From the NCBI GenBank assembly GCA_951406725.2, contig OX597819.1, forward strand, positions 24,180,001-24,244,000: 64,000 bases of DNA, read 5' to 3'. Shown here piece after piece: positions 32,301 to 34,179 of the stretch. The notes under the pieces are model-generated. The model saw only the letters and a list, made by a program, of their open reading frames with translations. It did no database searches and was not told the origin of the DNA. This DNA comes from Octopus vulgaris (taxonomy: Eukaryota). Positions within the stretch are counted from its first letter, which is position 1, and each line of letters begins with the position of its first letter. Position numbers and translations under genes: made by a program.

Positions 32301-32686
32301 CAGTATGTATGTATGTATATCTATCTATCGATCGATCTATCTATCTATCTATCTATCTATCTATCTATCTATCTATCTATCTATCTATCTATCTATCTAT
32401 CTATCTATCTATCTCTCTCTCTCTCTCTCTCTCTCTATATATATATATATATATATATATATATATATATAGCAATAATAATTCTCTAAACGAGGTATAT
32501 ACAGTAACTGCTCCATAACATAAGGGACGTTAGCCATCCGAGTATGGCTAGGGACAGGGCAGGGCGGTGGGGGTGTTACTGATGCATTTAGCCCCAGGCG
32601 ATCATCAACGTCACCAGGAGGGCTGACGCCACCACGGCGTCCTCTAGCCTGCAAAGGGAGATCATTCCCCGAAGAAGCGGATGCCA

Positions 32687-32731
32687 CATACGGACCCAGG
32701 TTTCAAGGTGTTTGCCTCTCGTCAACGTATG
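32687..32731 (-). ncRNA. type I hammerhead ribozyme (unit 1)
   Basis: CATACG-TTGACGA-GAGG caaaca CCTT-GAA-ACC tg GGT-C-CGTATG. 6-bp stem I, GUC cleavage triplet. Confidence 0.8.
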
Positions 32732-33046
32732 GTAGGCACCGCCCCTCGACGAACGACTCTCTGTGCAGGCTATCTATATAAAGATTTTCGCAGTAAATAC
32801 ATTTACTGATGTAGAAAATCTGTTCGACAGCAATAATAATTTTCTCTAAACGAGGTATATACAGTAACTGCTCCATAACATAAGGGACGTTAGCCATCCG
32901 AGTATGGCTAGGGACAGGGCAGGGCGGTGGGGGTGTTACTGATGCATTTAGCCCCAGGCGATCATCAACGTCACCAGGAGGGCTGACGCCATCACGGCGT
33001 CCTCTAGCCTGCAAAGGGAGATCATTCCCCGAAGAAGCGGATGCCA

Positions 33047-33091
33047 CATACGGACCCAGGTTTCAAGGTGTTTGCCTCTCGTCAACGTATG
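33047..33091 (-). ncRNA. type I hammerhead ribozyme (unit 2)
   Basis: Identical to 32687-32731, exactly 360 nt away. Confidence 0.8.
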
Positions 33092-34179
33092 GTAGGCACC
33101 GCCCCTCGACGAACGACTCTCTGTGCAGGCTATCTATATAAAGATTTTCACAGTAAATACATTTACTGATGTAGAAAATCTGTTCGACAGCAATAATAAT
33201 TCTCTAAACGAGGTATATACAGTATATATATATATATATATATATATATATATATATATATATATATATATATATATATATATATATATGTATATATTTA
33301 TAAACATATATTATATGTCGGTATAAACAGAAATACTACCTGAAATATAAATTGTCTATTTATGTATTTCATATATATTTCAGCTTTGATAGTTTACTTC
33401 AACCACGAACAAACTGATGTTGCTGACGCCAGTCAATGTCGAATACTAATGACGTTGGTGAATATATTATGACGTTCAAACATCCTGTAAATATACATAA
33501 ACCTTTTTATACGTTACGAGTGCCAGAAAGCGTTAAAAGGTGTTATTCAATCACATCACAGATTACTTCTCATGACATTATAGTATTATGTATAAGCGCG
33601 AGTGTGTAATTGTGTGCGTGTCTTATCCCTCTTGTATAAAATATGGGTATGATTTTAATATCTCTTTAAGAAAATAACTTACACATTTCATTTTACTTGC
33701 TGTAATCATTGGATCGAGTTCATGATGGAACACCACTTTTAAGAGTTTTAATCAATCATAATTAATTTTGAGTGTAGTCATTATTTTATCCATAACTGCA
33801 TTGCTGATTTTGTCATAAAGGGCCGAGACTAGTTTCAACCAATAAACAGACACACATATATGAGAATATATATATATATATATATATAATAGAGTAAGAA
33901 ATAGAAACTACTACAGTATTATATACTATATATTATATATAAGTATGTGTGTATGTGTATTTCTGTGTGTATTTCTCCGCCACACTATCGCTTGACGAAC
34001 GGTGTTAGTGTGTTTACATTCCTGTAACTGATAATTTTTCCACTTAATAATTAGATGTTAATAATTGTTAAAGTGGAAAAATGATCAGAAAAGTTATTTC
34101 TATTCATTTTTCATATATGCATGTATGTATATATAATAATAATATAAGTAATATATATATATATATCTTTCTCTCTCTT

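Follow-up and report, generated by a model that had tools for sequence, protein, structure and literature searches.

Retrozymes are already known from animals, and their mobilisation by Penelope-like elements (PLEs) has been proposed, yet to be demonstrated. The units of animal non-LTR retrozymes measure 220–245 nt in coral, 350–390 nt in mussel and 330 or 350 nt in axolotl, and circles from the retrozymes of all three occur in vivo (Cervera and de la Pena 2020, PMC7229834). In Xenopus, 24 of 57 retrozyme families are tied by sequence to known elements, nearly all of them PLE terminal repeats (pLTRs), and one of nine predicted retrozyme dimers was cleaved in vitro (Li, Clavereau and Pollet 2026, 10.64898/2026.07.22.740005). 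PLE insertions are characterized by partial tandems, an inverted 5'-truncated copy, a 30–40-bp tail that is often found at a single end, and a bias to (TA)n (Craig et al., PMC8557442). Hammerheads of the PLE type cleave poorly in vitro (PMC4209133), and U3-A8 cores are known from schistosome PLEs (PMC8557442, PMC4209133). Copying of a ring from two nicks has already been proposed for both PLEs and retrozymes (PMC4209133, PMC7229834). Newt satellite 2 carries an snRNA-type promoter (PMC2220036).

By all features that can be tested, an element in a 64,000-nt stretch of Octopus vulgaris DNA, hereafter the window, is likely to be an animal non-LTR retrozyme, for which self-cleavage and circles are predicted (Table 1). 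TRF detects in the window a 360-bp period with 2.1 copies and 98% matches at 32471–33224, bearing out the original observation of two near-identical 360-bp units and a partial third between (TA)n runs. The two units are 2 substitutions and one 2-nt insertion apart over ~390 aligned bases. We refer to the family of this unit as family 1 and number its positions k1 to k360 from the first base 3' of the hammerhead cut. The unit lies within the ~150–450 bp of animal non-LTR retrozymes, a type I hammerhead is present in each, and two complete hammerheads are consecutive. The circular window monomer folds on the minus strand at -120.9 kcal/mol (z = -3.6, 100 dinucleotide shuffles), and the plus-strand fold has z = -2.6 (dinucleotide shuffles). 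The unit had also been called non-coding, and this holds: the longest ATG frame on the circle reaches 64 aa, and reading frames are broken by the variation of unit length between 355 and 360 nt. Relatives measure 355–359 nt, so that a coding circle, conceivable because 360 is divisible by 3, was ruled out; the exact length of 360 nt is private to the window copy, and a minus-strand frame with a single stop is likewise confined to it. The RT/GIY-YIG ORF characteristic of an autonomous PLE is absent from the window unit, and the window element is not an autonomous PLE. ARAGORN, which degenerate SINE heads escape, reports no tRNA genes in 31800–34000. Four plus-strand G-runs per unit, noted by eye (32540–32565, + strand), are a possible G-quadruplex.

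Table 1. Features of the array in the window (minus-strand features are described in the RNA sense)
Feature	Position	Strand	Basis or remark
Putative one-armed, 5'-truncated retrozyme insertion, 754 nt, 2.1 units, k187 to k224	32471..33224	-	TRF; BLAST vs monomer
Predicted 360-nt monomer, 49.7% GC	32693..33052	-	Long rod extends stem I; longest ATG ORF on the circle 64 aa
(TA)18 target, 3' side of the RNA-sense strand	32436..32471	.	TRF
(TA)n target, 5' side	33214..33316	.	TRF; the 5' junction has a TA dinucleotide in common with the unit
PLE-type 'tail', 44 nt, k179–k224	32471..32514	-	Window copy stops at the long end; sister copies also stop at k173–178
Upstream type I hammerhead, U3·G8 core, G10.1·U11.1, loop 3 CUGG	33047..33091	-	Predicted cut 33053/33052
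Downstream type I hammerhead, same as the upstream copy	32687..32731	-	Predicted cut 32693/32692
U1/U2-snRNA-type promoter-like motif, ATCAGT, then an AT-rich TATA-like block ~28 nt on	33134..33170	-	Predicted start near 33110 (inferred)
Promoter-like motif, second copy, within the monomer	32774..32810	-	Predicted start near 32750 (inferred)

On the minus strand, each hammerhead comprises stem I CATACG/CGTATG, the core TTGACGA, stem II GAGG/CCTT, GAAA, C-CTGG-G and TC. Stem II has 4 bp and is closed by the G10.1·U11.1 wobble; helix III has 2 bp, and its loop CUGG is an imperfect palindrome; the cleavage triplet is GUC. The core of the window copy is not canonical, as it has a U3·G8 wobble in place of C3-G8 or U3-A8. 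In active ribozymes, the C3-G8 base pair can change to U3-A8 by covariation (PMC3088659). Judging from this pairing and from general background, the U3·G8 core would probably cut more slowly than U3-A8 subfamilies. The original prediction of one minus-strand type I hammerhead per unit stands in its stem I, its GUC triplet, both cut sites and the monomer that they delimit, but it had overlooked the U3·G8 wobble, and for the window copy it is weakened accordingly. The match to Rfam Hammerhead_1 that had been suggested as a check did not materialize: Rfam, Hammerhead_1 included, has no match at E<=10 on 32480–33215, and on 30000–36000 it yields only sub-threshold matches to miRNA and snoRNA models, all outside the array. 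A regular-expression scan of the whole window recovers both array hammerheads and one purine-rich plus-strand match at 46845, which we judge to be due to chance. A pattern scan of the unit for a second, plus-strand ribozyme of the viroid-like kind found none, and twister-like and HDV-like resemblances noticed by eye were dropped. When a double hammerhead is forced on the array, the fold is only 6.6 kcal/mol above the MFE and joins both monomer ends; in the fold of a lone monomer, the pairing probability is 0 for helix III and ~0.3 for stem II.

Family 1 has 1,452 candidates in the genome. The best 40 scored places contain 154 matches on many contigs, and the best full-length match at each is 90–97% identical; the family is dispersed and, as proposed earlier, young. 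This set of 40 distinct places consists of 30 loci less 4 overlapping duplicates, plus 14 further places; being the best matches to the whole monomer, the places are biased to long, window-like copies and to arms that cross the cleavage site. Two sister families, family 2 (2,621 candidates) and family 3 (1,991 candidates), have the whole architecture in common with family 1. A young monomeric family 3 copy with a U3-A8 core is present in the window itself (57873–58205, - strand), 79% identical to the 360-bp unit and 99% to its nearest relative. A family 2 copy elsewhere (L077:5580-5817, + strand) combines a C3-G8 core, the canonical one, with a loop 3 that is a perfect palindrome; the tail-like match of this locus beside a PLE was rejected as a PLE tail, being a separate sister-family insertion. 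Family 1 is not described in the literature, mostly other than subscription papers, that we found on octopus retrozymes and hammerheads and on non-autonomous Penelope elements; it is with respect to this literature that the family is uncatalogued, as had been suggested for cephalopods.

Conservation of the ribozyme was assessed on 30 rows, 10 per family, hand-picked from 83, and on 19 pairs. In this set, 95.7% of the cells are paired, compared to 23–48% in slid controls. Both sides have changed in 10 of the 19 pairs; among these are the core 3-8 pair and pairs of the loop-3 palindrome and of the extended part of stem I. Such covariation between the three sister families implies that the ribozyme was selected, with figures that are inflated by relatedness, since there are only about three lineages. 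The expectation that the hammerhead is more conserved than the remaining unit is thereby upheld across the families; within family 1 alone the difference is slight at most and not clear, with a mean majority frequency of 0.951 overall but 0.886 in the first core strand. Private changes in family 1 amount to 24/3,298 in the hammerhead versus 315/27,386 in the remainder.

The 3-8 pair is UA in 13, CG in 10 and UG in 7 of the 30 rows. Family 2 has C3-G8 in 19/19 hammerheads and family 3 has U3-A8 in 33/34 (one spurious match dropped). In family 1, counted at the 39 places other than the window copy, position 3 is U in 79/79 hammerheads, accompanied by A8 in 27 and G8 in 52. With family 3 as an outgroup (28 monomers), U3·G8 is derived from U3-A8 and is found in at least two amplifying lineages, to one of which the window copy belongs. 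The tree has at least two changes to G8, and a single G8 clade is not rejected (AU p = 0.22). Positions k293–343 form a mosaic, a segment that looks exchanged between family 1 lineages. U3·G8 may have arisen twice or may have been spread by recombination. The stems, GAAA and the GUC site are intact in the U3·G8 lineages, one of which has regained G10.1-C11.1.

Copies of family 1 end at two fixed points ~45 nt apart and not at the cleavage site. Among the 68 outer RNA-sense 3' ends at the 40 places, 31 fall at k173–178 (short ends), 29 at k220–225 (long ends) and 8 elsewhere. The fixed ends abut (TA)n in 56 of 60 cases (30/31 short, 26/29 long), versus 2/8 for the other ends. Two-armed places make up 28 of the 40; their arms are arranged head to head, and the truncated 5' ends meet inside. 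Both ends are fixed at 21 of these places, of which 20 combine a short with a long end, one has two short ends and none has two long ends (binomial p = 2e-5); at the remaining 7, one end lies outside the fixed sites. The window copy, with its long end and its start at k187, is among the 12 one-armed places. Family 3 follows the same pattern, inspected by eye: 9/9 inverted loci with both ends fixed, among 27 loci, are short plus long. Any target site duplication would be masked by (TA)n, and none is readable. At one copy outside TA (L022), the empty site carries 15 other bases, which suggests a deletion. Tandem and inverted 5'-truncated copies, a tail and a microsatellite target, the traits of PLE insertion, are all present in family 1. 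At the level of sequence, this footprint is that of Penelope-like insertion, and the mobilisation by Penelope-like enzymes that had been proposed for the array gains support from the fixed ends, the (TA)n junctions and the inverted arms.

Arms at one locus carry one haplotype. At 32 subfamily-diagnostic sites, with gap-adjacent columns excluded, differences number 15/1,061 within an arm, 22/1,301 between the arms of one locus and 55,068/128,206 (43%) between loci; an apparent within-locus polymorphism at k210–213 turned out to be a gap-placement artefact. Family 1 arms are up to 1,261 nt long and run across the cleavage site. One haplotype per locus appears best explained by a single ring copied from both target nicks, which is the simplest account; a homogeneous uncleaved multimer also fits. 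We lean towards a ring as the template.

For comparison of the promoter-like motif with bona fide snRNA genes, 24 U1/U2 loci (12 of 48 U2 and 12 of 42 U1 matches) with about four promoter types served as a reference. ATCAGT is found at -57 to -61 in 23 of these 24 loci. The sole exception lacking an upstream ATCAGT (L226, G000:C3:20816122-20819315) has a possible insertion at the gene start. In family 1, ATCAGT lies 76–79 nt 5' of stem I in 62/79 hammerheads, and in family 3 it lies 78–80 nt 5' of stem I in 29/35 matches, in both cases with a TATA-like block after it; most family 2 copies are cut short in this region. Alignment of the unit with the snRNA promoters gives p ~0.02–0.05 for 10 of 12 U1 loci and is mostly not significant for U2. 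Because these scores alone are marginal, it is the fixed spacing of ATCAGT that argues for an snRNA-type motif. The motif is retained in the window copy, and its predicted start near 33110 precedes the first hammerhead. In contigs of runs that we guessed to be RNA, the ratio of unit depth to unique-flank depth does not exceed that of DNA runs, and neighbouring repeats are equally deep; flank and unit depths are ~1–3 and 43–3,799 in one such run (X7), and ~52 and 16,746–362,328 in another (X1). These depths count neither for nor against expression. The two ends of a 390-nt contig from a related unit join up, as they would in either a ring or a tandem.

Autonomous PLEs of this genome also have two ends and (TA)n. 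In the PLE family with intact 781-aa RT/GIY-YIG frames (17 loci), both inverted loci (2/2) have one short and one tailed end. A second autonomous family (30 loci) has two ends as well, with the full tail at both ends in 2/5 inverted loci, so that the one-tail rule is not general. The third, very young family has a single end site in 30/30 loci. The window holds a near-complete PLE that ends in (TA)n (8549–13050, + strand), with a U3-A8 hammerhead-like motif near 12947–12980, an RT/GIY-YIG ORF of 694 aa (781 aa where intact elsewhere) and a remnant of an upstream ORF without a Pfam match (386 aa here, 479 aa in other copies). Two ORFs are unusual in a PLE. We regard this element as a candidate mobiliser. 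A 5'-truncated copy of a very young PLE, which we take from its motifs to be Neptune-like, also ends in (TA)n (35170–37122, + strand; 21,829 candidates); its relatives show 98–99% protein identity and frames of up to 1,214 aa, and a minimal hammerhead-like motif, in which position 6 is U, lies near 36993–37021. Motifs also lead us to assume that a nearly intact element whose RT and endonuclease frames are accompanied by an upstream ORF (48082–51940, - strand) is LINE-like, and that fragments at 7276–8180, 13914–14330 and 47311–47778 derive from mariner-like transposases. Elsewhere in the genome, a PLE family (L191, G000:C4:866512-869793, and L192-L220) has a hammerhead-like motif with an A3-U8 core pair, a further Watson-Crick variant, and a ~50-nt tail, and a short element that ends in (TA)n has a U3-A8 hammerhead-like motif (L049:26-70, + strand).

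Partners of the unit were sought with a GIY-YIG scan, in which 150 of 6,136 candidates were scored, and with two PLE protein searches. Among 7 termini of 5 PLE families, none is significantly homologous to the unit by BLAST or Smith-Waterman; the best match, a 29-nt tail match to one PLE family, has p = 0.015, which is not significant as one of 21 tests. A tblastn search with three PLE proteins has no hits in the first 30 family 1 loci or in 27 family 3 loci, and in family 2 loci it detects only two unrelated PLE fragments, in the flanks.

We consider that the window element is very probably a PLE-mobilised retrozyme. In the reading that we prefer, to which we assign a probability of about 0.6, a PLE likely supplied the reverse transcriptase and the endonuclease by which a protein-free hammerhead tandem repeat was copied into TA microsatellites, with a small RNA ring as the template. 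Transcription would start at the internal U1/U2-type promoter, ~60 nt 5' of the first cleavage site. Two hammerheads would then pair by means of their palindromic loops 3 and excise an RNA of unit length, the ends of which stem I would hold together until a host ligase closed the ring. Finally, the PLE endonuclease would nick (TA)n, and reverse transcription, primed at ~k224 on one strand and at ~k178 on the other, would run 1–3.5 times around the ring. The window copy would be a one-armed product of such copying, and it could serve as a source, since promoter, ribozyme, monomer and ribozyme are all kept in it. That this copy itself gives a 360-nt RNA we hold to be possible, at somewhat less than even odds.

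Closest to this reading is one in which the same element is moved by the same PLE enzyme, the template being an uncleaved linear multimer transcribed through the tandem array; the U3·G8 lineages would have a slow ribozyme or could dispense with it, and the window copy would yield little or no 360-nt circle. It would account for the finding that U3·G8, present in 52/79 hammerheads and derived from U3-A8, belongs to lineages that kept multiplying, and it is in keeping with the weakness of PLE-type hammerheads in vitro (PMC4209133) and with eight of nine Xenopus dimers that remained uncleaved (10.64898/2026.07.22.740005). Against it, the U3·G8 lineages have preserved stems, GAAA and GUC, and one has restored the G10.1-C11.1 pair; units are near-uniform within a locus at the diagnostic sites; and retrozyme circles do exist in vivo in coral, mussel and axolotl (PMC7229834). 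We consider a multimer template unlikely, though far from negligible. A different origin, in which the units are orphan pLTRs or truncated 3' ends of an autonomous PLE, could be imagined from the homology of many Xenopus retrozyme families to pLTRs (10.64898/2026.07.22.740005), from the occurrence of a U3-A8 core in one PLE clade of this genome, and because just 150 of 6,136 GIY-YIG candidates were scored. Yet on its 5' side a unit is bordered by a further unit, by an inverted arm or by flank; the tblastn search left the first 30 family 1 loci and the 27 family 3 loci empty and gave only two unrelated flank fragments in family 2; and the unit combines an snRNA-type motif with the canonical 6-bp/4-bp architecture instead of a minimal PLE hammerhead. 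An orphan-repeat origin is therefore quite improbable in our view.

Mobilisation by a LINE, in the manner of a SINE, deserves mention since LINE-type RT ORFs are present within the window and Cervera and de la Pena left the choice between LINE and PLE open (PMC7229834). The unit, however, does not carry its own poly(A) or simple-repeat tail, no target duplication is readable, and its two fixed ends with a tail and its inverted arms with fixed starts match what PLEs of this genome show. In favour of a LINE, L1 is known to produce twin-primed inversions; overall, we find this alternative very hard to credit. Least plausible of all is a minisatellite produced by local duplication of DNA, with a ribozyme-like motif present by chance: the lack of an Rfam match would be expected from it, but the core pair and the helices covary, and a family dispersed over many contigs with fixed ends refutes it. 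Returning to the copying of a ring by a PLE, we tentatively propose that the copies record the last step of the retrozyme cycle, in which a Penelope-type enzyme copied a single ring, made from an snRNA-type promoter, into DNA twice, starting at two fixed points and entering both nicked strands of (TA)n, and that U3·G8 lineages with U3-A8 ancestors went on amplifying and exchanging a ribozyme segment.

If so, the U3·G8 lineages amount to a natural test of the degree of self-cleavage that a retrozyme requires. Family 1 offers a very small substrate with two exact putative priming points, and natural variants with C3-G8, U3-A8 and U3·G8 occur together in a genome where intact PLE ORFs are also present. 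Priming points and matched core variants make directly testable both the origin of PLE tails and inverted arms and the need for cleavage and circularisation in spread; we see these points and the series of core variants as the most useful aspects of the family.

Compared with the animal non-LTR retrozymes described in PMC7229834, the window element is likewise built of tandem repeats a few hundred bases long, each with one type I hammerhead, and has a GC content just below 50%, no ORF, a long self-paired monomer and a weak helix III with a palindromic loop; its unit is of the size found in mussel. In many family 1 copies, stem II has a U·U at its base, a trait also of the axolotl Amex2 ribozyme. 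Family 1 differs from these retrozymes in its U3-A8 or U3·G8 core; its (TA)n insertion, two fixed ends and inverted arms have no evident counterpart in the main text of that paper, where the words 'inverted' and 'microsatellite' are absent. Expression and circles were demonstrated for those retrozymes and are predicted for family 1. EN+ PLEs of the Neptune/Nematis type (PMC8557442, PMC4209133) are like family 1 in that they insert into (TA)n as partial tandems with an inverted, 5'-truncated copy, have a tail at one end and carry a hammerhead near the 3' end. Unlike them, family 1 has no RT or GIY-YIG ORF, its hammerhead is of canonical and not minimal size, and its tail measures 44–46 nt. Going by PMC4209133, the window hammerhead has the canonical metazoan architecture, which functions in dimeric form, and not the minimal PLE one. 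With newt satellite 2 (PMC2220036, PMC7229834, PMC6765202), family 1 has in common a tandem hammerhead unit, predicted dimeric cleavage and an internal snRNA-type promoter, here a motif match; the likeness is one of description, and family 1 consists of short dispersed arrays with PLE ends. In contrast to the Xenopus families tied to pLTRs (10.64898/2026.07.22.740005), for which the PLE link lies in homology, none to a pLTR was found for family 1 among the termini compared, and its link is the insertion footprint. With two consecutive complete hammerheads, the window copy fits the definition of a putatively active element given in the same study, and, like the vertebrate non-LTR retrozymes described there, family 1 coexists in its genome with endonuclease-bearing PLEs.
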